Shown: positions 829-43,651, numbered from the stretch's first letter. The stretch: 45,119 nt of DNA from an uncultured Planctomycetia bacterium (GCA_964466525.1 CAYXQY010000007.1:1-45119), one strand, 5' to 3'. Translations and numbers: made by a program. Notes: generated by a model from the sequence alone, not told the origin.

Positions 829-1755
829 TCATGTAACCGGATTGGATTGATCGTACGATTCTTTTAATTTTCCGTTCGCAATGTGCGTATAAATTTCCGT
901 GGTCTGAAGGTTCTCGTGCCCGAGCATTTCCTGAAGTGTTCGAAGATCCGCCCCGTTCTGCAACATGTGTGTTGCAAATGAATGCCGTATCGTATGGGGG
1001 CTCACCTCTTCGGACAGACCCGCCTTTTCAGCCACGGAGGAAACCGCACGACGAATTCCGCGCGTACTGAGACGATTTCCGAATTTGTTGTAGATCAGGG
1101 GACCGCTGGTCACGGACTGGATTCGACCTTCTTTTTTCCACGTGCGAAGGTATGACTGCATGACGTCAATCGCTATTTTCCCAATCGGAACTACGCGCTC
1201 TTTGTCCCCTTTCCCCTGCACGCGAACCGTCCCTCCAACCTGATCCACATGCTCCACGTTCAACAGGTGCAATTCAATCGCCCGTAAACCGGTCGAATAC
1301 AGGATTTCGACGATCGCTCTGTTTCGTTGACCGGTTAACGTGGATACGTCCGGAGCGTCAAGTAAAGATTCCATCTCCTCTTCCGTCAAGTAATTGGGCA
1401 GACGTTCTGTCAACCGGGGATAATCCATTTTCCGGGTGGGGTTCTGATCGAGTTGCTCGTCCACCTCAACGAGCATGTCGAAAAACGTACGCAGTGCGCC
1501 GAGTTTTCGGCCGATCGAGCTGTTCCTGTAATCCTCTTCCTGCAGTTCGGAAAAATATCGATGAACCACCTCCGCGTCGACCTCCTTTACGGATTGAACC
1601 TCTTCCCGTTGAAGGAAATTTTCGAAATCCTTCAGGTCGGATCGATAGGAACGGATGGTCTGCGACGAGGACACGCGACCACTTGAGAGGTACTCCAGAA
1701 ATTGATCCCGGTGCGGAGCCAGGATTCGTTCTTGTTTCGCTGTCTCTGATGACAT
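829..1755 (-). CDS. tyrosine site-specific recombinase, XerC/XerD family
   Basis: 308-aa ORF. N-terminal core-binding region (QTIRSYRSDLKDFENFL) and catalytic box HTIRHSFATHMLQNGADLRTLQEMLGHENLQTTEIYTH (HxxR, H, Y). I cannot separate XerC from XerD by eye. Confidence 0.85.
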   Translation of the reverse strand: MSSETAKQERILAPHRDQFLEYLSSGRVSSSQTIRSYRSDLKDFENFLQREEVQSVKEVDAEVVHRYFSELQEEDYRNSSIGRKLGALRTFFDMLVEVDEQLDQNPTRKMDYPRLTERLPNYLTEEEMESLLDAPDVSTLTGQRNRAIVEILYSTGLRAIELHLLNVEHVDQVGGTVRVQGKGDKERVVPIGKIAIDVMQSYLRTWKKEGRIQSVTSGPLIYNKFGNRLSTRGIRRAVSSVAEKAGLSEEVSPHTIRHSFATHMLQNGADLRTLQEMLGHENLQTTEIYTHIANGKLKESYDQSNPVT

Positions 1756-4756: not shown

Positions 4757-4835
4757 TGGCCCGAAGCTGTGCTCGATTCCGAACGGTTGTTAATTTCGAA
4801 TTCGATCTGAATCACTTGATTTCCGTCATTCCGAC

Positions 4836-5204
4836 ATGGATATTCTGATCAAAAGCAACGACACGGAGTTAACGGCTGAAATCCATCACGATGAATTTGC
4901 GGAAAAACTCCAGGAGGTACTTCCGGTGGATACCAGTGCAAGCACATGGGGAGACGAAGTGTATTTCCGGATTCCGGTCGAAGAGGACCTTGATGAAAAT
5001 GCAACGGACGTGGTCGATCCCGGCACTGTAACGTACTGGGTTCAGGGATCCGCCATGGCCATACCATACGGCCCAACCCCTGCCTCCCATGACGATGAAT
5101 GTCGTCTTGCCGCTCGAGTGAATATTCGAGGGAAACTAACGGACGATCCAGAACGTCTCGACGAGATATCAGCGGGGGATCCCATACGAATAGAGTCCAC
5201 CTGA
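4836..5204 (+). CDS. cyclophilin-like superfamily protein (TM1367/Cyclophil_like type)
   Basis: 122 aa. The pattern WGDEVYF...DPGTVTYWVQGSAMAIPYGPTP...ARVNIRGKL resembles the small cyclophilin-like family of unknown function. Confidence 0.6.
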   Translation: MDILIKSNDTELTAEIHHDEFAEKLQEVLPVDTSASTWGDEVYFRIPVEEDLDENATDVVDPGTVTYWVQGSAMAIPYGPTPASHDDECRLAARVNIRGKLTDDPERLDEISAGDPIRIEST

Positions 5205-5246
5205 ACACGGATCTGAATTGAACAAATATAACATAACTTATCTATC

Positions 5247-6059
5247 ATGCGGGAAACCCCATTCTTTCTGTTCACGGACTTCGGAGCGGAGTCCATATAT
5301 ACAGGGCAGATGCGTGCGGTCATTTCCTCGATCTGCCCGGATGCTGACGTAATGACCCTCACGAACACCGTCCCCCGGCAGAACCTTGTTGCGGCCGCGT
5401 TTCTTCTGTCCTCAAGCCTCGACTATCTACCGGCGGGAAGTCATGTGCTCTGTGTTGTGGACCCCGGCGTGGGATCGGAACGACCGATTATCTGTCTGCG
5501 AACGGACGAGCCCGAACTGACACTGCTGGGCCCGGACAACGGGATGTTTTCCGTGTTGTCCGATCGGATCGTCGTCTGCAGGGAAGTATCCGATACCTCC
5601 TACTGGCTGGAGAAGATATCAAATACATTTCACGGCCGGGATATCATGGCACCTACCCTGGCTCACCTTGCAGCCGGTACGCCGCTTGAAGAAATTGGAC
5701 CCCGGTATGAATCCCTTGAACCCCTCGATGAAAATGAGTGGTTTTCAGTCGAAGAGAACGAGGAAACGTTAACCGGAACAATTTTGTACGCCGACGTATT
5801 CGGCAACCTGATTACAGGCATTTCCGAACAGGACGTCCGCCGGTTTTTCGAAGACCCGGACCTTAACCAGCTGCACGTAACCGTGGGAGATCACGAAATT
5901 ACCGGAATCCACTCGTCGTACAATGCCGTGAAGGCGGGAGATCCCCTGGCGATAATCAGTAGTGCCGGCCAGCTCGAACTCGCAGTTAATCAGGGGTCAG
6001 CAGTCGAGCATTTTGTCAACGGACCGGGGGATTCCGTATCGGTTCGACGTCCGGGCTGA
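5247..6059 (+). CDS. S-adenosyl-L-methionine hydroxide adenosyltransferase family protein (DUF62, SAM hydrolase / halogenase-like)
   Basis: 270 aa. Motifs FTDFG..SIYTGQMRAVI, VVDPGVGSERP, GPDNGMF, TFHGRDIMAPTLAHLAAG, DVFGNLITGI and SSAGQLELAVNQGSA match the DUF62 family. Confidence 0.85.
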   Translation: MRETPFFLFTDFGAESIYTGQMRAVISSICPDADVMTLTNTVPRQNLVAAAFLLSSSLDYLPAGSHVLCVVDPGVGSERPIICLRTDEPELTLLGPDNGMFSVLSDRIVVCREVSDTSYWLEKISNTFHGRDIMAPTLAHLAAGTPLEEIGPRYESLEPLDENEWFSVEENEETLTGTILYADVFGNLITGISEQDVRRFFEDPDLNQLHVTVGDHEITGIHSSYNAVKAGDPLAIISSAGQLELAVNQGSAVEHFVNGPGDSVSVRRPG

Positions 6060-6189
6060 ACAGGGTCTCAGCTTTGACATCATTATTTCGCAGAAACAGG
6101 ACGGAACGTTATCAAAAAAGCATGAGGGAGAACTTGGTTCTATTGTTACCGTCTTACAACACTTGTAAAAAACCAGAACAGGGATTCTC

Positions 6190-7403: not shown

Positions 7404-8240
7404 ATGGCCAAAACGAAAGAGCTTCTCAACCGGGAAGGATTTGCAAATACGGAACGTACGGATTCATGGTGGATTAAACCATTATCCATCGTGGTGGGCC
7501 TGTCAATATTCATACTTTACGCAAATTTTCGAACGTTTTATCCCCTTTTTACGGATGCGAATCCGGGAATTATTGACGGGCCCCTTCTCTCCCCATTCTT
7601 CGCACCATTGATATTCGCCGAAGGGCCCGCCGCAGGACACGCGTGGTTCGGTACATTTCCAGAAGGCTGGCCGAACTGGCTCAGATCACCGGCCTTTCTG
7701 ATTCTCTGGGCGCCCCTTGGTTTTCGGTTGACCTGTTATTACGCAAGGAAAGCGTATTACCGGGGCTTTTTTATGGACCCGGCGGCCTGCGCGGTGTCGG
7801 AAGGTTCGGAAGAGTATCATGGTGAAAAAGGAGTCTGGATCTTTCAGAACCTCCACCGCTACTTTTTCTATCTCGCCGTGGTCTTCATGTTCATTCTCTG
7901 GTACGACACGATTCAGGCCATGTTCGGATGGGAGCACTGGACGAAATTCAAAATCACGGGCGGGACAATCGTTATTGGTCTTGACGCCCTTCTCATTTCG
8001 GGCTACACGCTCGGATGTCACAGTTTTCGATATCTCGTTGGTGGCTCGAAACGCTGTTTTTCCTGTCCGCAGTCCGGAAAAAACGTATCTTCAAGATACT
8101 GGCTCTGGAAATGGGTCACGAAGTTGAACCTGAATCACCATACCTTCTTCTGGGCAAGTCTTTTCTGGGTGGGATTCACGGACCTGTACATCTGGATGAT
8201 TTCGACTGGTACCTGGTCTGATTTTGTGATTATTGGTTAG
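7404..8240 (+). CDS. sdhC: membrane anchor subunit of succinate dehydrogenase/fumarate reductase (non-canonical, about 5 TM helices)
   Basis: Hydrophobic 278-aa protein whose stop (8238-8240) lies 1 nt before the sdhA ATG (8242). About five hydrophobic segments. Function is assigned from operon context with sdhA and sdhB. The ORF track starts at GTG 7398; an ATG lies at 7404. Confidence 0.65.
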   Translation: MAKTKELLNREGFANTERTDSWWIKPLSIVVGLSIFILYANFRTFYPLFTDANPGIIDGPLLSPFFAPLIFAEGPAAGHAWFGTFPEGWPNWLRSPAFLILWAPLGFRLTCYYARKAYYRGFFMDPAACAVSEGSEEYHGEKGVWIFQNLHRYFFYLAVVFMFILWYDTIQAMFGWEHWTKFKITGGTIVIGLDALLISGYTLGCHSFRYLVGGSKRCFSCPQSGKNVSSRYWLWKWVTKLNLNHHTFFWASLFWVGFTDLYIWMISTGTWSDFVIIG

Positions 8241-8241
8241 T

Positions 8242-10050
8242 ATGAGCGTTACAACACACGAACACGATGTCCTTGTAATCGGCGCTGGTGGTGCCGGGTT
8301 GTCTGCGGCCATTTCTGCAAGCCAGCAGGGAGCCGACGTAGGAGTCGTCAGCAAATCACTCCTGGGGAAAGCTCATACCGTTATGGCCGAAGGAGGAATT
8401 GCCGCCTCGCTCGGGAATGTTGACGAAGAAGATAACTGGAAGGATCACTTCAAAGACACGTACGCGGGCGGATGGGGGGTTAGCAACTGGAAGATGGCAG
8501 AAATCCACGCCAAAGAAGCACCAGATGCAGTTCGACAACTGGAACGATGGGGTGCGCTATTCGACCGTACGGACGAGGGAAAAATTTCCCAGCGACCGTT
8601 CGGAGGTCATCGACATGCCCGTCTGGCCCACGTCGGGGACCGCACCGGTCTTGAGATGATTCGAACGCTGCAGGACAAATGTGTGGAGGAGGGTATTGAA
8701 ACGTATATGGAATGCACGATTACTCACCTGCTGAAGGACGAGGATAAAGAGCGCATGGCCGGTGCATTTGGTTTCTGGAGCAAGGACGGGGAAAGCATCC
8801 TGTTTCGCTCCCGAAAAATTGTTCTGGCAACGGGTGGAATTGGAAAAGCTTATCGTATTACGTCAAATTCCTGGGAATACACCGGGGACGGTCACGCAAT
8901 GGCCCTTCGTTCCGGGGCCGACCTGTGTGACATGGAATTTGTGCAGTTTCATCCAACGGGCATGGTCTGGCCGGAAAGTGTGAAAGGGGTACTGGTCACC
9001 GAAGGAGTACGGGGGGAAGGGGGCATACTAAAAAATTCCGAAGGAGATCGATTTATGTTTAACCATATTCCCGAAGCGTATCAGGGCCGGTACGCTGACA
9101 CCCTCCAGGAGGCCAATGCCTGGGTGGAAGACAAGGACAATAACCGTCCGCCCCCGGAATTGCTCACTCGAGACGTGGTCGCACGAGCGATTCTCGAGGA
9201 AGTGAAAGCAGGTCGGGGAAGTGAACACGGTGGCGCATACCTTGACATCGCCTCAAGACGATCCGACGAATACATCAAGGAAAAACTCCCGGCGATGTAC
9301 CATCAGTTCAAAGAACTGGCCGACGTGGACATTACGGAAGAACCAATGGAAGTCGCCCCCACGTGCCACTACATGATGGGAGGGGTTTACGTCGATGCCG
9401 AACGTCAGGAATCCACCGTGGACGGCCTGTATGCCGCCGGAGAAGCAGCCGGCGGATTGCACGGGGCAAACCGTCTCGGGGGCAACTCTCTCAGCGATCT
9501 GCTCGTTTTCGGTAACCGGGCCGGAATAGCCGCGGGTGAAGATGCCAACGGACTCTCTGAGCTTCCCACCATTAACGAATCACAGCTTGAGGAAGCAAAG
9601 GAGGACCTTGAATTCCCGTTTGAAAACTCGGAAGAACAGGGTGAAAATCCATACCACCTTCACGAAGAGTTACAGACAATCATGGAAGAACACGTGGGCA
9701 TTATCCGTGACGAAGAGCGGCTCGACGAAGGCATCAAAAAGCTGAAAACACTGAAGGAAAGATCAAAAAACATGTATGCATCCGGACCCCGAACGTACAA
9801 CTCCGGCTGGCGTGAATGCTTTGACGTGCGTAACCTGATCGACGTCGGACTGGCGATTGCCCATGCGGCAAAGGAACGAAAGGAAAGCCGGGGTGCTCAC
9901 AGCCGGGTCGACTATACGCAACCGGAAGAAGAATTCGAGCAAACCAAAATCATCCTCCGTTCAAGAAATGGATCGCTTGAAACAGAACACGAGGAATTAC
10001 CCGAAATGGATGAGGAACTCCAGGAACTCGTCGACGAAGACACAAAATGA
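8242..10050 (+). CDS. sdhA: succinate dehydrogenase/fumarate reductase flavoprotein subunit
   Basis: FAD-binding VLVIGAGGAGLSAA, FVQFHPTG, HYMMGG, GANRLGGNSL and ESRGAHSRVDY. The ORF track start 8233 is a TTG overlapping sdhC; ATG 8242 is preferred. Confidence 0.95.
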   Translation: MSVTTHEHDVLVIGAGGAGLSAAISASQQGADVGVVSKSLLGKAHTVMAEGGIAASLGNVDEEDNWKDHFKDTYAGGWGVSNWKMAEIHAKEAPDAVRQLERWGALFDRTDEGKISQRPFGGHRHARLAHVGDRTGLEMIRTLQDKCVEEGIETYMECTITHLLKDEDKERMAGAFGFWSKDGESILFRSRKIVLATGGIGKAYRITSNSWEYTGDGHAMALRSGADLCDMEFVQFHPTGMVWPESVKGVLVTEGVRGEGGILKNSEGDRFMFNHIPEAYQGRYADTLQEANAWVEDKDNNRPPPELLTRDVVARAILEEVKAGRGSEHGGAYLDIASRRSDEYIKEKLPAMYHQFKELADVDITEEPMEVAPTCHYMMGGVYVDAERQESTVDGLYAAGEAAGGLHGANRLGGNSLSDLLVFGNRAGIAAGEDANGLSELPTINESQLEEAKEDLEFPFENSEEQGENPYHLHEELQTIMEEHVGIIRDEERLDEGIKKLKTLKERSKNMYASGPRTYNSGWRECFDVRNLIDVGLAIAHAAKERKESRGAHSRVDYTQPEEEFEQTKIILRSRNGSLETEHEELPEMDEELQELVDEDTK

Positions 10051-35353: not shown

Positions 35354-35428
35354 GCCCCGATAGCTCAACCTGGATAGAGCACTGGTCTTCGAAACCAGGT
35401 GTTGGGGGTTCGAATCCTCCTCGGGGTA
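35354..35428 (+). tRNA. tRNA-Arg (anticodon TCG)
   Basis: Cloverleaf read by eye. Acceptor GCCCCGA/TCGGGGT (G1-U72 wobble), D arm GCTC-AACCTGGATA-GAGC, anticodon arm CTGGT-CTTCGAA-ACCAG, T arm GGGGG-TTCGAAT-CCTCC, discriminator A. No encoded CCA. Confidence 0.85.
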
Positions 35429-35900
35429 CTCCAGAGTTCTCCATGCACGGTCTATGAGGCTGCTTAAAACCCGCGCAACGTCAGCGAAACGAGTTGCGTC
35501 GAAGAGCGCGGAATCCACCGCAGTAGATGCCGTCAATGCATCCGAGGAGATTACGTAGTAATTGTTCATTTCAAATAGCAACGAAATGTTGCGATTTGAA
35601 TATGTTTGACAAAGGGAACCGACGTAAGTCGTTTCGTATCAAGGAGATCGAATGCAATTGGAGTCTCTGGGCGATTGCGTATTCTCGCCGATGCGCTTTC
35701 GATAACGCCTGCGAATCCGCAGACTACGGAGAACCGAATTGCATTCTACTGACGGAGTGGGGGTTTTTCAGCAGCCTCCAATTATAACCTATCGTTTTCC
35801 TTGTTCACCATCCCGACCACCCTTTTTAACGCGTGACGACTCCGAACGCCTCTTGAACAATTATTCAACTTCACCGTTCTTCCCCTGTTGACCGTCGAGC

Positions 35901-36866
35901 ATGTCCGACAAACACAAAAAGCTGTTTTACCTTGCCCTTGCCACAACCCTGCTGACGTTTCTCCTCATTGGTCTGGGCAATGTTGTCACGCGTACGCAGT
36001 CCGGTCTTGGATGTGGGGACCACTGGCCGACATGCAACGGCGATTGGGTCCCCGACCTGACGAATATTCACGTGGCAATTGAGTTCTTTCATCGTATTCT
36101 CGCTGCGCTCGTTGGTTTTTTCACGCTTCTTCTAACCGTGTGGTCATGGACGGTTCGGAACCCACGATTCGCTCGCTCCATACGGAACCTCTCCATTCTA
36201 TCAATTGTTTTGTTAGGGGGACAGATTGTTCTTGGGGGGTTCACCGTGAAATATCATCTTCCCCCTTCCCTTGTTGTTCTGCATAATGGAACGAGCGTCG
36301 CTTTCCTGGGTGCGCTTACATTTCTGACGGGGCGGATATTTCAACTGAATACGGCGAATGGAAACTCCGTTGAAGATCCGTGTCCGGGCGCCTCTCTAAT
36401 CCCCCTCACGAGCGTGCTATCCGTGCTTGTCCTCGGTCAAATTCTGCTGGGGGCGTATGTGCGCCACTCAGGGAGCAGAGGTGGATGTCCGGACATGATT
36501 CCTTTCTGTCAGGGAGGACATCTGTTGCCTCCGCTCACCAAACCGGCAATCGTCCATTTCTCGCACAGGATACTGGGATTGACCATTGGACTTCTTTTTC
36601 TATACCTGGTGTATCGAGCAATCCGAACCGATTCACGCTACGCCACGTTTCTTGCAATAACCGGATGCCTTCTTGTAGGATTGCAGGTTCTTTCCGGACT
36701 CAAATCAATCTGGACCGGTGGCTGGACCCTCGTTATCTGGTCGTCCATACACCTGCTAACAGCAGCCACCATCTTTGTCGTACTGATCATCCTTCTCGTC
36801 GGCATAAAATCCGTTCATCCCCTTCCGTACATGCAATCGATCGCCGTGGATGAACACCCCACATAA
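35901..36866 (+). CDS. ctaA: heme A synthase (COX15/CtaA family)
   Basis: 321 aa and multi-TM. GLGCGDHWPTCNG cysteine pair, a second pair region (GGCPDMIPFCQG) and conserved His in FHRILA / SHRILG. Confidence 0.9.
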   Translation: MSDKHKKLFYLALATTLLTFLLIGLGNVVTRTQSGLGCGDHWPTCNGDWVPDLTNIHVAIEFFHRILAALVGFFTLLLTVWSWTVRNPRFARSIRNLSILSIVLLGGQIVLGGFTVKYHLPPSLVVLHNGTSVAFLGALTFLTGRIFQLNTANGNSVEDPCPGASLIPLTSVLSVLVLGQILLGAYVRHSGSRGGCPDMIPFCQGGHLLPPLTKPAIVHFSHRILGLTIGLLFLYLVYRAIRTDSRYATFLAITGCLLVGLQVLSGLKSIWTGGWTLVIWSSIHLLTAATIFVVLIILLVGIKSVHPLPYMQSIAVDEHPT

Positions 36867-36869
36867 TCC

Positions 36870-37754
36870 ATGACCACCGCCACCGTCACAAGCCGCCTTC
36901 TGGACTACGGGAACCTGATGAAACCCCGGATCACCCTGCTTGCGCTGTTCACGACATTTGTTGGGTTCCAGTTGGCATCAGCCCCGACTTCTTCTTTACA
37001 ATTGCTGTTTTTTACGCTTGTCGGAACGGCCCTGGGATCGAGTTCGGCAAGTACGTTAAATAATTATGTGGATCGGAACCTGGACAAGAAAATGTCTCGC
37101 ACCTGTGACCGAAGCCTCCCTGCCGGACGGATTTTACCCACCGAAGCTCTGGTACTTGGGCTTGTTCTCGGTGTTTCGGGCATCGGGATCCTGGCCTGGT
37201 TGGTGAATCCGCTGACCGCCGCTCTTCTGCTGTTTACGATCGCATTTTATATCTACGTATACACCCTATGGCTGAAGAGAACATCTCCGTACTCCACCGA
37301 AATCGGAGGGGTGGCTGGATCGATGCCCCCGGTTATTGGCTGGACGGCCGCCACCGGCACACTCAGTGTGGAAGCACTTGCCCTGTTTTTGATCATGTTC
37401 ATCTGGCAGCCACCGCACTTCTGGGCCCTCGGGATATATTACATGGATGATTACAAAAACGCGGGCATTCCGCGATTTCCGGTGGTCAAGGGAGTGGATC
37501 AAACCCGGCGACGAACCCTTTTCTACAACACGCTGCTGATTCCTGCTTCGTTCTCCCTATATCTTCTCGGTATGGCGGGTATAACCTATCTTATTGCCGC
37601 AGCAATTCTGGGTCTCGCCTACCTTATGGTCACGATTCAGTTTACTCGAAATGAACCGAATCCTTCGGACGCTATAAAATTATTTTCCTTTTCCAACCTG
37701 TACCTGCTCCTGCTTTTCGTTGTTATTTTTGTCAGCTCGGATCCGATATTCTGA
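36870..37754 (+). CDS. ctaB: protoheme IX farnesyltransferase (heme O synthase)
   Basis: 294 aa. UbiA-fold motifs NNYVDRNLDKKMSRTCDRSLPAGR and PPHFWAL...YKNAGIP. It starts 3 nt after ctaA. Confidence 0.92.
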   Translation: MTTATVTSRLLDYGNLMKPRITLLALFTTFVGFQLASAPTSSLQLLFFTLVGTALGSSSASTLNNYVDRNLDKKMSRTCDRSLPAGRILPTEALVLGLVLGVSGIGILAWLVNPLTAALLLFTIAFYIYVYTLWLKRTSPYSTEIGGVAGSMPPVIGWTAATGTLSVEALALFLIMFIWQPPHFWALGIYYMDDYKNAGIPRFPVVKGVDQTRRRTLFYNTLLIPASFSLYLLGMAGITYLIAAAILGLAYLMVTIQFTRNEPNPSDAIKLFSFSNLYLLLLFVVIFVSSDPIF

Positions 37755-37758
37755 ATCC

Positions 37759-38703
37759 ATGCGAACAAAAATTTCGAAAAAAACACTTGATCACGCTCGT
37801 GATCGAAATGAGTTGCTCGGCCTCGTCGGGAATACCCCTCTCGTTCACCTGAGCGACGTAGCGGACGATTTATCCGACGGCGTCGATATCTTTGCTAAAG
37901 CCGAGTGGTTCAACCTGTCCGGTTCCGTAAAAGCCCGTCCCGCACTATCGATGATTCTTGGGGCGGAACAATCCGGAGAACTCACACCCGAAAAGGAAAT
38001 AATTGATGCCTCAAGTGGTAATACGGCCGTTGCATATGCCGTGATCGGAGCCGCTATGGACTATCCCGTCAAGATATGCATTCCGGAAAACGCAACCAGA
38101 GAACGGAAAGGCATTCTTTCAGGACTGGGAGCGGAACTCGTCTTCACCGATCCTTCGGAGGAAATGGATGGCGCGATTCGGAAGGCTCGAGAGCTCGTGG
38201 AAGCACAACCGGAGCAATATTTTTATCCGGATCAGTACAACAATGAGCTGAACTGGCAGGCTCACTATCATACAACCGGTCCCGAAATTATGGAGGACAC
38301 GGACCGATCGATAACCCACTTTGTCGCGGGACTGGGGACAACCGGGACCTTTGTCGGCACATCCCGATACCTGAAGGAAGCAAAACCGTCTACGGAAGCC
38401 GTTAGTGTTCAGCCCAAAACTGCGTTGCACGGGCTGGAAGGCTGGAAACACCTCGAGTCGTCCATGGTCCCCGGTATTTATGATCCGGACGTTGCTGACC
38501 GGGAGTTACGAGTTTCCACTGATTCGGCGTACGAAATGATGCACCGGCTTGCGGAACGGGAGGGGTTGTTTGTGGGTCCTTCCGGCGGGGCTGCGGCGTG
38601 TTCGGCCGTTGAAGTGGCTCGAACGATTGATCAGGGAGTTGTCGTCACAATTTTACCTGACGGTGGAGAAAAATACATGGAGCTGTGGCATGATGAAGAT
38701 TAA
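37759..38703 (+). CDS. cysM: PLP-dependent cysteine synthase, CysM-like (probable thiocarboxylate-dependent sulfhydrylase)
   Basis: Motifs SGSVKARPA (PLP lysine), SSGNT, GLGTTGTF and GPSGG. ATG 37759 lies 4 nt after the ctaB stop; the ORF track's 37720 start overlaps ctaB. Confidence 0.85.
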   Translation: MRTKISKKTLDHARDRNELLGLVGNTPLVHLSDVADDLSDGVDIFAKAEWFNLSGSVKARPALSMILGAEQSGELTPEKEIIDASSGNTAVAYAVIGAAMDYPVKICIPENATRERKGILSGLGAELVFTDPSEEMDGAIRKARELVEAQPEQYFYPDQYNNELNWQAHYHTTGPEIMEDTDRSITHFVAGLGTTGTFVGTSRYLKEAKPSTEAVSVQPKTALHGLEGWKHLESSMVPGIYDPDVADRELRVSTDSAYEMMHRLAEREGLFVGPSGGAAACSAVEVARTIDQGVVVTILPDGGEKYMELWHDED

Positions 38704-39121
38704 ACTGTCAAACAAGCAGAGAGAAAAAATTCAGAAGCACGGGGAGGAAGGTTATCCACACGAAATATGCGGAGCGATGCTCGGGACATTCGACGAGAAG
38801 GTCATCTCCGTCGAGGAATTGTACCGATTGGAAAACCTTCGGGATATAAACCCCGAAAGGCGCTATGAAGTAACACCACAGGATCAGTTAGAAGCTCAGA
38901 AACGAGCGGACAAACTGAACCTTGAAGTCGTCGGTTTCTACCACAGTCATCCCGACCATCCCGCTCAACCCTCACAGTACGACCTCGACCACGCCTGGCC
39001 CAGGTATGTTTATGCGATTGTTTCCGTTCGGGACGGCACCGCGGAGACGCTGAATTGCTGGCAGCTGTCCGAAGACCATTCCGAATTCAACCGGCTGTCG
39101 TTCGTTCTTGGGAAGAAATAG
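38690..39121 (+). CDS. JAMM/MPN+ (Mov34) metalloprotease, Mec/QbsD-like
   Basis: 143 aa from ATG 38690 (MMKIKLS). HEICG glutamate and HSHPDHPAQPSQYD (HxHx7Sx2D). It overlaps the cysM stop by 14 nt. The ORF track's 38549 start lies inside cysM. Confidence 0.85.
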   Translation: MMKIKLSNKQREKIQKHGEEGYPHEICGAMLGTFDEKVISVEELYRLENLRDINPERRYEVTPQDQLEAQKRADKLNLEVVGFYHSHPDHPAQPSQYDLDHAWPRYVYAIVSVRDGTAETLNCWQLSEDHSEFNRLSFVLGKK

Positions 39122-39260
39122 CGAGAAGTAGCACATGTCCCTTCTCCTCCTCCCGGATTCATTTCCTGTCTTCTTTGCTACACCCCTTCCCTGACGGCAG
39201 GAGCCCTTCCCGGTATCGATTTTTGTTTTCGACATCACGGAGCTTTCATTATTCATGCAA

Positions 39261-39289
39261 TTGAACTTTATACCTGGATCACATACAAT
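39261..39289 (+). promoter_or_regulatory. sigma70-type promoter of the cysO-moeZ fusion gene (TTGAAC-17-TACAAT)
   Basis: TTGAAC tttatacctggatcaca TACAAT, about 60 nt upstream of ATG 39351. Confidence 0.5.
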
Positions 39290-39350
39290 TATTCTGATTT
39301 TAATACATGCTTGCTACGCTTCTGAATAGACTCACTTGTATTCCAGTCCT

Positions 39351-39623
39351 ATGCCAGTCGTAAAAATACCAACTCCTCTGAGAGAATACGTCGACGAACA
39401 GGAAGAAGTAGAGGTGGATGGAGAGACCGTTGACGAAGCGCTCCGTACACTCACCGAGCAATATGACGAACTGTCTGAACACCTTTACACCGAAAATGAA
39501 GAGAAGCTCCGTCAATACGTAAATATATACGTCAACGAGAATGACATCCGTACGAAAAATAACGAGCAGACCGAGCTGGACGACGACGATGTCATCAATA
39601 TTATCCCGGCCATCGCCGGAGGA
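39351..39623 (+). other. CysO-like beta-grasp (ubiquitin-like) domain ending in the Gly-Gly codons at 39618-39623
   Basis: 91 codons. They resemble M. tuberculosis CysO as I recall it (FVNIYVNDEDVR...ILPAVAGG). The frame continues past GG into the linker IDATKSRAEELKEQGAEEVETELTKEEVE. Confidence 0.8.
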
Positions 39624-40847
39624 ATAGATGCAACGAAATCAAGGGCCGAGGAACTAAAGGAACAGGGAGCTGAAGAAGTTGAAACCGAACTGACGAAGGA
39701 AGAAGTTGAACGATACAGCCGGCATTTCCTCGTTCCGGAAATCGGGGAGGAAGGACAGAAAAAACTGAAATCAGCAAGCATTCTCATGGTGGGGGCCGGC
39801 GGACTGGGAGCTCCATTTGGAATGTATGTCGCCGCGGCCGGCATTGGGAAGCTCGGTATTATCGACCACGACAAAGTCGAACATTCAAACCTACAGCGCC
39901 AGCTGCTCCATGGGTCCAGCGACGTGGGACGTTCCAAGCTCGCCTCCGCCCAGGAGACAATCGGGGAAATTAACCCGAACGTGGAGCTGGAACTGTACGA
40001 AGAGAAATTAACCAGCGACAATGCACTGGAAATCATCGACCAATATGATCTTGTGGTCGATGGCACGGACAATTTTCCCACCAGGTACCTCGTCAACGAC
40101 GCCTGTGTGATGCTCGGGAAACCGAATGTGTACGGAAGCATTTTTCGATTCGAAGGTCAGGTGTCAGTGTTCGACGCGGAAAAAGGCCCCTGTTACCGAT
40201 GCCTGTACGAAGAGCCCCCTCCGCCGGGTCTCGTTCCGGACTGCGCCGAAGGCGGTGTGCTCGGTGTTCTCCCCGGAATTATCGGCACATTGCAGGCCCT
40301 TGAGGCAATTAAAGTGATCACGGGGATCGGTGATCCGCTAATCGGTCGGTACCTTATTTTCGACGCCAAGTCGATGAATTTCCGGGAGCTGAAATTGCCA
40401 AAGAACCCGGACTGCCCAGTGTGCGGAGAGAATCCAGAGGTAACGGAACTTATCGATTACAAGCAGTTTTGCGGTATCGATCTTTCGGAGGAAGAAAAAA
40501 CCCTGCAGGAAGATGAAGAGGAAGACCGCCTCCCTGAAATCGAAGTGACCGAACTGAAACAGCGGTTGGACAGCGGGGAGGAACCCTTCATCCTGGACGT
40601 TCGCTCCCCTCAGGAAGTCGAGATATGCAGGCTTGAGAATTCCCGTGTGATTCCCCTCGGTAAACTCCCGGATCAGCTCGGCGAATTACCCCGTGACCAG
40701 GAAATCGTCGTACACTGCCGGTCCGGGAAACGAAGTGCACAGGCCCAGGAACTGCTTATCGACGAAGGGTTCGAGGACGTCAAAAATCTGAAAGGAGGCA
40801 TTCTTGCCTGGGCCCACGAGGTGGACGACACCATGCCCACGTACTGA
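39351..40847 (+). CDS. tri-domain fusion: CysO/MoaD/ThiS-like sulfur carrier (ends AIAGG), ThiF/MoeB/MoeZ adenylyltransferase (E1-like) and rhodanese
   Basis: 498 aa in one continuous frame. Carrier part MPVVKIPTPLREY...YVNIYVNENDIR...IIPAIAGG. E1 part RYSRHFLVPEIGEEGQKKL..ILMVGAGGLGAP, CYRC and CPVC zinc pairs. Rhodanese part with HCRSGKRS. Confidence 0.88.
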   Translation: MPVVKIPTPLREYVDEQEEVEVDGETVDEALRTLTEQYDELSEHLYTENEEKLRQYVNIYVNENDIRTKNNEQTELDDDDVINIIPAIAGGIDATKSRAEELKEQGAEEVETELTKEEVERYSRHFLVPEIGEEGQKKLKSASILMVGAGGLGAPFGMYVAAAGIGKLGIIDHDKVEHSNLQRQLLHGSSDVGRSKLASAQETIGEINPNVELELYEEKLTSDNALEIIDQYDLVVDGTDNFPTRYLVNDACVMLGKPNVYGSIFRFEGQVSVFDAEKGPCYRCLYEEPPPPGLVPDCAEGGVLGVLPGIIGTLQALEAIKVITGIGDPLIGRYLIFDAKSMNFRELKLPKNPDCPVCGENPEVTELIDYKQFCGIDLSEEEKTLQEDEEEDRLPEIEVTELKQRLDSGEEPFILDVRSPQEVEICRLENSRVIPLGKLPDQLGELPRDQEIVVHCRSGKRSAQAQELLIDEGFEDVKNLKGGILAWAHEVDDTMPTY

Positions 40848-43489: not shown

Positions 43490-43535
43490 TGCTCTCAGCA
43501 ACGGGTGTAAAACTTTTCTTTCCGACCATCGTTAT

Positions 43536-43617
43536 GGGCACTTGGCGGAATTGGTAGACGCGCTGGTCTTAGGAACCAGTGGGTTCTCCCGTGGGGGTTC
43601 GAGTCCCTCAGTGCCCA
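43536..43617 (+). tRNA. tRNA-Leu (anticodon TAG)
   Basis: Acceptor GGGCACT/AGTGCCC, D region GGCGGAATTGGTAGACGC, anticodon arm CTGGT-CTTAGGA-ACCAG, long variable arm, T loop GGTTCGAGTCC, discriminator A. Confidence 0.9.
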
Positions 43618-43651
43618 TCTTTTTCTATCATTATGATTGTTCTTTTATTCG

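Follow-up and report, generated by a model that had tools for sequence, protein, structure and literature searches.

A 45,119-nucleotide (nt) stretch of DNA from an uncultured Planctomycetia bacterium (GCA_964466525.1, CAYXQY010000007.1:1-45119), referred to below as the window, carries at positions 37759 to 40847 of its plus strand three adjacent open reading frames (ORFs), which code for a CysM-type cysteine synthase, a JAMM metalloprotease, and a 498-amino-acid (aa) protein that joins a CysO-like sulfur carrier to an adenylating (E1-like) domain and a rhodanese domain. Sequence comparisons and the analogy to the CysO pathway of Mycobacterium tuberculosis indicate that cysteine is probably made by this cassette by way of a carrier thiocarboxylate, for which the JAMM protease would first release the carrier from its precursor. 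It is virtually certain that the three proteins are the components named here. The ORFs, their coordinates, and their Pfam domains agree with the three-gene module of the original prediction, which had been made from the DNA sequence alone, and the motifs quoted in it (SGSVKARPA, SSGNT, and GLGTTGT in the synthase; HEICG and HSHPDHPAQPSQYD in the protease; GAGGLG, CYRC, CPVC, and HCRSGKRS in the fusion) are all found at the expected places. The pathway and the operon type are known; the new and unstudied part is the widespread carrier-E1 polyprotein and the dual-role JAMM protease that it implies.

The fusion gene (39351 to 40847, plus strand) encodes a continuous protein in which Pfam recognizes the ThiS (aa 4 to 91), ThiF (aa 122 to 357), and Rhodanese (aa 399 to 489) domains. 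Its first 91 residues do score as a ThiS/MoaD/CysO-type carrier: the Pfam ThiS match has 55.5 bits (cut-off, 22.5), and the best match of this segment among solved structures is CysO from M. tuberculosis (PDB entry 3dwg_C; E value, 1.1e-13), followed by a ThiS/MoaD-family protein from Amycolatopsis (4n6e_B). Because residues 3 to 91 align end to end with residues 4 to 93 of CysO, Gly90-Gly91 of the carrier fall on the C-terminal Gly92-Gly93 of CysO. As encoded, however, this di-glycine (GG) is internal and is followed by 407 residues, so that a free C-terminal GG is not present before proteolysis. Since adenylation of the carrier needs a free C-terminal carboxylate, the precursor would have to be cut after Gly91.

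The junction itself has the features of such a site. Homologs of the fusion were obtained in a search of 5.8 billion proteins, and the best 120 listed were aligned. The junction P-[SA]-[VI]-A-G-G is invariant in all 120 of them, the ∼20 positions that follow the GG are gap-rich and unconserved, and conservation returns at L-[ST]-x-E-E-x-x-R-Y-S-R-H, where the E1 domain begins. In an AlphaFold2 model built from 60 homologs, the mean per-residue confidence (predicted local distance difference test, pLDDT) is 85, with residues 89 to 107 below 50. A di-glycine that never varies, placed in a linker that does and that is modeled with low confidence, is the pattern that would be expected of a processing site. 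Carriers encoded as separate genes in related cassettes point in the same direction. The GG is followed by 8 residues in locus L004, by 2 in L005, by 12 in L013, and by 5 in L018, and the carriers of L007 and L021 end at GG. As these unfused carriers often have such tails of 2 to 12 residues, trimming after the GG seems to be needed in the family in general, with the fused E1 as an extreme case of a carrier “tail.”

The 91-aa carrier was also searched against a representative library of 1.84 billion proteins, which is rich in fragments and frameshifted calls, so that counts from it are rough. No full-length fusions were seen among its best 150 matches in this fragment-rich library. Eleven of these CysO-like representative proteins end exactly at GG, and 54 have 1 to 15 extra residues, which often start with Cys or are rich in it (GG-C, GG-CCCCCCL, GG-CCALI, GG-CCVMTCGT, and GG-ACACYCPCRMNA). 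An encoded GG-Cys would resemble the carrier-cysteine adduct that the JAMM protease is predicted to hydrolyze.

The E1 domain (Pfam ThiF, 283.7 bits) contains the motifs RYSRH (aa 121 to 125), GAGGLG (aa 148 to 153), and DGTDN (aa 237 to 241), as well as the zinc pairs CYRC (aa 281 to 284) and CPVC (aa 355 to 358). The rhodanese domain (Pfam, 69.2 bits) has the active-site loop HCRSGKRS with Cys456. The GAGGLG motif, both CxxC pairs, the crossover-loop residue Cys298, and the rhodanese Cys456 (in the 60 homologs compared for this residue) are invariant. Among the NCBIfam models, MoeB (PRK07411) gave 517 bits and MoeZ gave 495 bits, both under their respective cut-offs of 633 and 647; PRK08762 was passed (466 bits; cut-off, 449), albeit over aa 85 to 375 only, and so was the broad subfamily model PRK05690. 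Sequence matches in the PDB were Uba4 (6yub) and MoeB (1jw9). In Foldseek comparisons, the E1 core superimposed on Escherichia coli MoeB with a template modeling score of 0.96 and a root mean square deviation of 1.8 Å, and the best full-length match was Uba4. An anti-phage system was rejected, as the matches to an NCBIfam 6A-MBL cap2_3 model were only marginal (20 and 44 bits; cut-off, 320).

The JAMM protein has an intact active site, with Glu25 in HEICG and the zinc-binding H-S-H-x7-S-xx-D signature at aa 85 to 98, and this motif is kept in the 16 cassette-encoded JAMM proteins that were aligned. Its best relative of solved structure is the uncharacterized protein 2kcq (E value, 1e-31), which presumably is a structural genomics target from Salinibacter ruber. 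The 14-nt overlap of its gene with cysM, noted earlier, holds, as the ATG is at 38690 and the TAA of cysM is at 38701 to 38703. Encoded beside the precursor, this JAMM is the obvious candidate for the processing protease.

The synthase is a fold-type II enzyme dependent on pyridoxal phosphate (PLP), with the PLP-binding Lys in SGSVKARPA (aa 54 to 62), the Asn loop SSGNT (aa 85 to 89), and the Gly loop GLGTTGT (aa 191 to 197). It was aligned, and placed in a neighbor-joining tree, with other cassette-linked synthases, CysM from M. tuberculosis (whose sequence was checked to be identical to PDB entry 3dwg_A), and CysK and CysM from E. coli MG1655. The cassette-linked synthases form their own clade adjoining the two CysM proteins and do not have the CysK-specific insertion. 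The possibility that the synthase would cluster with ordinary CysK, considered in the original prediction, was not borne out: it belongs to a CysM-side clade that consists of cassette-linked enzymes only. This clade is marked by the motif H-G-x-E-G-x-K-H, represented in the window protein by LEGWKHLE (aa 226 to 233), whose Lys is invariant in the clade. The corresponding Lys230 of the window protein aligns with Arg220 of M. tuberculosis CysM, with Arg210 of E. coli CysM, and with Gln in CysK. Arg220 reportedly determines the specificity of the mycobacterial enzyme for O-phosphoserine. Since Arg is also found there in E. coli CysM, which uses O-acetylserine, this position cannot separate the two substrates; a conserved basic residue would be compatible with an anionic leaving group or sulfur donor. 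The synthases of the window and of its nearest genome, an uncultured Planctomycetia metagenome-assembled genome (MAG; locus L001), share two other changes. The PLP lysine is followed by Lys-Ala-Arg instead of the usual Lys-Asp-Arg (window positions 37918 to 37944), and the substrate-carboxylate loop has SGNTA instead of the usual SGNTG (38011 to 38025). Both changes are limited to this Planctomycetia lineage among the aligned sequences.

These components suggest the following course of events. The JAMM protease would cut the 498-residue precursor after Gly91, producing a 91-residue CysO-like carrier and a 407-residue MoeZ-like enzyme. The E1 domain of the latter would use ATP to adenylate the C terminus of the carrier, and a persulfide on the rhodanese Cys456, or sulfide directly, would turn the acyl-adenylate into the carrier thiocarboxylate. 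The CysM-type enzyme would form aminoacrylate from O-phosphoserine or O-acetylserine; attack by the thiocarboxylate, followed by an S-to-N acyl shift, would yield carrier-Gly-Gly-Cys. The same JAMM would then hydrolyze the carrier-Cys peptide bond, so that cysteine is set free and the carrier can be used again. This protease is predicted to act in two ways, once at the Gly91-Ile92 bond of the precursor and then repeatedly at the Gly91-Cys bond of the adduct. All steps after carrier release, from adenylation to the release of cysteine, are modeled on the chemistry of M. tuberculosis and would follow it.

The M. tuberculosis system of CysO, CysM, and Mec+ with MoeZR (presumably Rv1335, Rv1336, Rv1334, and Rv3206c, respectively) likewise combines a GG-terminated carrier and a CysM-type synthase with a JAMM hydrolase and an E1 that bears a rhodanese domain at its C terminus; Mec+ reportedly hydrolyzes the CysO-cysteine adduct. 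In that organism, however, the carrier is made on its own, as a protein of 93 aa that ends at GG, and the E1 gene is unlinked, whereas in the window the carrier is N-terminal on the E1 and all parts are adjacent. The gene order is mec-cysO-cysM, versus cysM-mec-cysO::moeZ in the window, and the window synthase is in a CysM-side clade other than that of the mycobacterial enzyme, with Lys where the latter has Arg220. MoeZR adenylates and sulfurates CysO and is dual-purpose, and M. tuberculosis CysM uses O-phosphoserine and the CysO thiocarboxylate (2022 review; O'Leary 2008).

Cleavage of a carrier after an internal GG has precedents in other pathways. The M. tuberculosis MoaD-MoaE fusion MoaX is cut between Gly82 and Ser83, and the cut is needed for activity; in Deinococcus radiodurans, the JAMM protease DRJAMM cleaves the MoaD-MoaE fusion DR2607, exposing the C-terminal Gly; and linear SAMP1 fusions are cut by HvJAMM1 of Haloferax. 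Like the window protein, both MoaX and DR2607 are linear carrier-enzyme fusions; they are cut after an internal GG, by a JAMM in the case of Deinococcus, but their partner is the sulfur-accepting MoaE of molybdopterin synthesis, whereas that in the window is an E1 and the proposed pathway is that of cysteine synthesis. Removal of a short tail by a JAMM has been described for QbsE/QbsD in thioquinolobactin synthesis and proposed for CxnE/CxnF in chuangxinmycin synthesis, and HcyS/HcyD of the Wolinella methionine pathway is a further carrier precursor matured by a JAMM. In all three, residues follow the GG, and a clustered JAMM exposes the GG (as shown or proposed) before a MoeZ-type E1 acts; their tails are functionless and 1 to 10 residues long, whereas the “tail” in the window is a 407-residue activating enzyme. 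The cuts after the GG in MoaX and those made by DRJAMM, HvJAMM1, and QbsD, along with the one proposed for CxnF, support the predicted JAMM processing after Gly91. Homologous carriers, E1s, and JAMM proteins also occur in the archaeal SAMP1/UbaA/HvJAMM1 and eukaryotic Urm1/Uba4 systems, and Uba4, too, has a C-terminal rhodanese domain; in contrast to the window cassette, these systems also conjugate proteins, serve tRNA thiolation or molybdopterin synthesis, and show no linkage to a cysteine synthase.

Gene neighborhoods of this kind had, as originally stated, already been catalogued. In the catalogue of Iyer, Burroughs and Aravind (2006; Table 1, row 4c), operon type 4c combines ThiS/MoaD, E1-rhodanese, JAB, and cysteine synthase and is listed for Pseudomonas aeruginosa, Rhodopseudomonas palustris, Solibacter usitatus, Rubrobacter, Salinibacter ruber, and Chloroflexus. 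Its gene content is exactly that of the window, with the difference that the carrier is a separate gene in the 2006 catalogue. The same authors described ThiS-E1 fusions only in thiamine operons in which a solo ThiS is retained as well, and Makarova and Koonin (2010) mentioned fusions of ubiquitin-like proteins with E1 in Thaumarchaeota as “shared with bacteria.” In the open-access literature, no description of, or experiment on, a CysO::MoeZ fusion within this cassette was found, in line with the earlier statement that the fused version has not been studied experimentally.

The fusion is neither a rarity nor confined to this genome. The ThiS, ThiF, and Rhodanese domains are combined in all of the best 120 listed homologs, which come from many independent assemblies and some of which are named Vicinamibacterales, Acidobacteria, or Ignavibacteriales. 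Look-ups by exact protein sequence returned PALP, Prok-JAB, and the fusion in this order for four out of four fused E1 homologs on long contigs and for three out of four synthase homologs; the fourth synthase is followed by Prok-JAB and a free 92-aa ThiS protein, with the E1 encoded elsewhere, as in M. tuberculosis. The order PALP, JAB, carrier (fused or separate) is thus common to all eight. Fused cassettes are also present in L001, L002, L003, and L015, and cassettes with separate carrier and E1 genes are present in L004, L007, L013, L018, and L021, which are MAGs of Terriglobia, Chloroflexia, and Deltaproteobacteria. The three genes are therefore co-conserved in relatives from several phyla, as had been anticipated, with loci from Planctomycetia, Acidobacteria, and Ignavibacteriales and from MAGs labeled Thermoplasmata. 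None of the fused cassettes examined has a separate carrier gene, and the unfused relatives have one at that exact position. In a neighbor-joining tree of the E1-rhodanese region, cassette-linked enzymes are set apart from stand-alone MoeZ-like ones, and the fused E1s are nearly monophyletic. As L004, with its separate carrier, nests among them, the fused and split forms appear to be interchangeable.

In L004, a Terriglobia MAG (positions 7989 to 8480), the carrier ORF ends with GG+AAPRCTCS, and the E1 ORF resumes in the same frame after a single stop codon, an arrangement that suggests either that an earlier fusion was split secondarily or that the sequence contains an error. Two MAGs labeled Thermoplasmata archaeon (L002, DASPXQ010000125.1, and L003, DASPZJ010000070.1) contain the fused cassette, with 54 to 55% identity to the window protein, which may be due to horizontal acquisition by archaea or to faulty binning. 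Some cassettes in other phyla have neighbors related to sulfur trafficking. Those of L083 and L084 are flanked by Rrf2, NifU, and an IscA-like gene, with a cysteine desulfurase gene in L084 as well; that of L087 is flanked by TusA and DsrE; and that of L089 is flanked by a class-V aminotransferase (Pfam Aminotran_5) that may be a cysteine desulfurase. Rhodanese-domain proteins of 281 to 283 aa are encoded upstream of the cassette in L082 and L088, and a 445-aa PALP::rhodanese fusion is encoded beside it in L084. Such gene neighborhoods hint that the sulfur comes from persulfide or thiosulfate.

The distance from the JAMM stop codon (39121) to the fusion ATG (39351) is 229 nt rather than 214 nt, as originally given; the latter figure is the distance to an in-frame upstream TTG at 39336. 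The ATG is taken as the start because the L001 protein, which is 86% identical, also begins with MPVVKI and cannot be aligned upstream of that point. A predicted promoter, TTGAAC-17-TACAAT, is present at 39261 to 39289, but it matches only 9 of 12 consensus positions, and such sites are not enriched over shuffled sequences (5 found in the region versus 4.2 ± 1.8 in shuffles). In L001, TTGACG-17-TAGAAT ends 61 nt before the fusion ATG, compared with 62 nt for the window site, and this similar placement may lend weak independent support to a separate promoter of the fusion gene. The L001 spacer is 1.28 kb long (L001 positions 4813 to 6092); the 229-nt spacer of the window does not align with it, and the ORFs inside it have no Pfam match. 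An Rfam search of the whole window, along with a permissive scan of the spacer, detected no riboswitch upstream of the fusion gene and no family match in the spacer. The only Rfam matches were two tRNAs and a chance-level match to RsmY (14 bits versus 57).

Several observations weigh against a carrier-dependent cysteine pathway encoded as a unit. The synthase is under every NCBIfam equivalog cut-off, the top models being cysM (322 bits; cut-off, 394) and cysKM (317 bits; cut-off, 344), and among PDB sequences it matches M. tuberculosis CysM with 164 bits versus ∼206 bits for Salmonella CysM (2jc3) and some CysK-type enzymes. It has Lys, not Arg, at the Arg220 position, which is itself non-discriminating for O-phosphoserine. 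The Omnitrophota locus L005, with its unfused carrier, has no JAMM gene within ∼8 kb. The trees are neighbor-joining trees without support values. Finally, with the fusion gene 229 nt away (1.28 kb in L001) and possibly served by its own promoter, expression of the three genes may not be strictly coupled.

Other explanations of the cassette would assign its parts to different tasks. One takes the fused E1-rhodanese for a housekeeping MoeB/MoeZ that serves as a general sulfur-relay hub, with cysteine as one outlet or none and with the released carrier, or other MoaD/ThiS proteins, feeding molybdopterin, thiamine, or tRNA thiolation. It draws on the NCBI name of the homologs (“molybdopterin-synthase adenylyltransferase MoeB”), on MoeB and MoeZ being the best NCBIfam matches, on the documented dual purpose of MoeZR, and on the neighbors seen in other phyla (TusA, DsrE, IscS, NifU, and rhodanese), which belong to general sulfur trafficking. 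Nevertheless, the MoeB and MoeZ scores are under the cut-offs, the cassette E1s are in a clade apart from the stand-alone E1-rhodanese proteins, a CysM-type synthase gene accompanies the fused protein at all of the loci examined that encode the latter, and none of the cassettes examined contains a moaD, moaE, thiG, or tRNA-thiolase gene. This hub reading is unlikely; a dual role added to cysteine synthesis may exist. It is very unlikely that the cassette is instead a ubiquitin-like conjugation system, in which the released carrier would be ligated through its GG to target lysines by the E1 alone and the JAMM would be a deconjugase. All three proteins match Haloferax models but stay under the curated cut-offs: SAMP1 with 59.2 bits (just under its cut-off of 60), UbaA with 344.6 bits (cut-off, 450), and desampylase with 97.4 bits (cut-off, 130). 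The invariant Cys298 aligns with the crossover-loop Cys of Uba4, presumably the thioester-forming Cys225, and JAMM proteases of this type cut both linear and isopeptide bonds; on the other hand, no E2- or E3-like gene lies near the cassette in the window, the invariant cysteine synthase partner would be left unexplained, and SAMP and Urm1, where conjugation is known, serve in sulfur transfer as well, so that conjugation would be an added role rather than a replacement. A joint reading, decidedly unlikely but allowing for both, is that of a minimal E2-less ubiquitin-like system, in which the modifier is made as a modifier-E1 polyprotein and the carrier both delivers sulfur and modifies proteins, being attached to them as SAMP, TtuB, or Urm1 are. 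The JAMM would then be a protease that processes the precursor (comparable to the deubiquitinases that cut fusion precursors of ubiquitin), a cysteine-releasing hydrolase, and a deconjugase, and cleavage would be the regulated step that turns on a route to cysteine protected from oxidation in aerobic Planctomycetes, Acidobacteria, and others.

The proposed release of the carrier could itself be questioned. If the N-terminal beta-grasp domain were a built-in docking or regulatory module that is never released, the true carrier would be encoded elsewhere. Fusions of ubiquitin-like and ThiF domains that co-occur with a separate ThiS are on record (Iyer et al. 2006), and with 45 kb of the genome in view, a solo carrier gene could lie outside. 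This, however, is highly improbable, given that the fused domain is a close CysO homolog with an invariant GG, that no fused cassette has a solo carrier where the unfused relatives place one, that L004 with its separate carrier nests inside the fused clade, and that the JAMM gene is always adjacent to the fusion. The chance that a frameshift, a lost stop codon, or an assembly error merged two genes is negligible. The carrier and E1 genes are indeed adjacent yet separate in L004, L007, L013, and L018, but the same continuous three-domain protein is found throughout the best listed homologs, with complete-length fusion genes on megabase-scale contigs and the same reading frame in the closest relative; an artifact was rejected because of these many independent occurrences. 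Production of cysteine through a JAMM-released carrier is thus retained as the probable function of the cassette, whose features are listed in Table 1.

Table 1. Features of the cysteine synthase, JAMM, and carrier-E1-rhodanese cassette in the window
Feature	Position	Strand	Match or remark
CysM-type PLP cysteine synthase, 314 aa	37759-38703	+	Pfam PALP, 224.9 bits
JAMM/MPN+ metalloprotease (Mec+-like), 143 aa	38690-39121	+	Pfam Prok-JAB, 83.6 bits
Intergenic spacer, 229 nt	39122-39350	+	Sigma-70-like site within
CysO-like beta-grasp sulfur-carrier domain, fusion aa 1-91, ending PAIAGG	39351-39623	+	Pfam ThiS
Gly90-Gly91, predicted cleavage and activation site	39618-39623	+	End of carrier domain
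Acidic linker, fusion aa 92-111 (IDATKSRAEELKEQGAEEVE)	39624-39683	+	Variable length and sequence in homologs
MoeB/ThiF/MoeZ-type adenylating (E1-like) domain, aa ∼112-375	39684-40475	+	Pfam ThiF
Rhodanese domain, fusion aa 399-489	40545-40817	+	Pfam Rhodanese; gene ends at 40847

Upstream of cysM, the window encodes the heme A biosynthesis proteins CtaA (COX15-CtaA family; 35901 to 36866) and CtaB (UbiA family; 36870 to 37754), and only 4 nt separate the ctaB stop codon from the cysM start. The local gene order in L001 (ctaA, ctaB, cysM, the JAMM gene, the fusion gene, and a ClC channel gene on the opposite strand) is the same as that in the window. Because of the 4-nt gap and this shared order, cysM and the JAMM gene are probably cotranscribed with the heme A genes in this lineage. 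The block from ctaA to the ClC gene is flanked by genes for tRNA-Arg(TCG) (35354 to 35429, plus strand) and tRNA-Leu(TAG) (43535 to 43619, plus strand). The remainder of the window is ordinary chromosome, with genes for ribosomal proteins, DnaB, SdhAB, MurB, and others, and a tyrosine recombinase of the phage-integrase family is encoded close to its left end (829 to 1755, minus strand). The acidic proteome noted earlier is evident among the soluble proteins of the window, with a median isoelectric point (pI) of 5.9 for 28 products; the pI of the fusion protein is 4.37. Ribosomal proteins are acidic too (S3, pI 5.8; L3, pI 6.3; and S6, pI 4.15, with 29% Asp+Glu). Such acidic soluble proteins suggest a salt-adapted organism.

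In the medical literature, the CysO route to cysteine is regarded as peculiar to mycobacteria or actinobacteria and as a target for drugs, and CysO-dependent CysM is stated to occur only in actinobacteria (2022 review). Judging from their sequences, the cassette loci contradict the latter statement. The cassette, mostly in its fused form, appears to be common in environmental Planctomycetia, Acidobacteria, Ignavibacteriales, Chloroflexia, and Deltaproteobacteria, and because it is found in so many environmental phyla, protein-bound sulfide may be a widespread route to cysteine, perhaps useful where free sulfide is scarce or quickly oxidized. Annotation of the homologs as “MoeB” and “cysteine synthase B” hides this pathway in metabolic reconstructions. 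The known system is thereby extended, and its current understanding is not overturned. The fusion predicts that a single small JAMM protease both matures the carrier-E1 polyprotein and recycles the carrier; if so, it would provide a simple bacterial model of how one enzyme could give rise to both deubiquitination and the processing of ubiquitin precursors.

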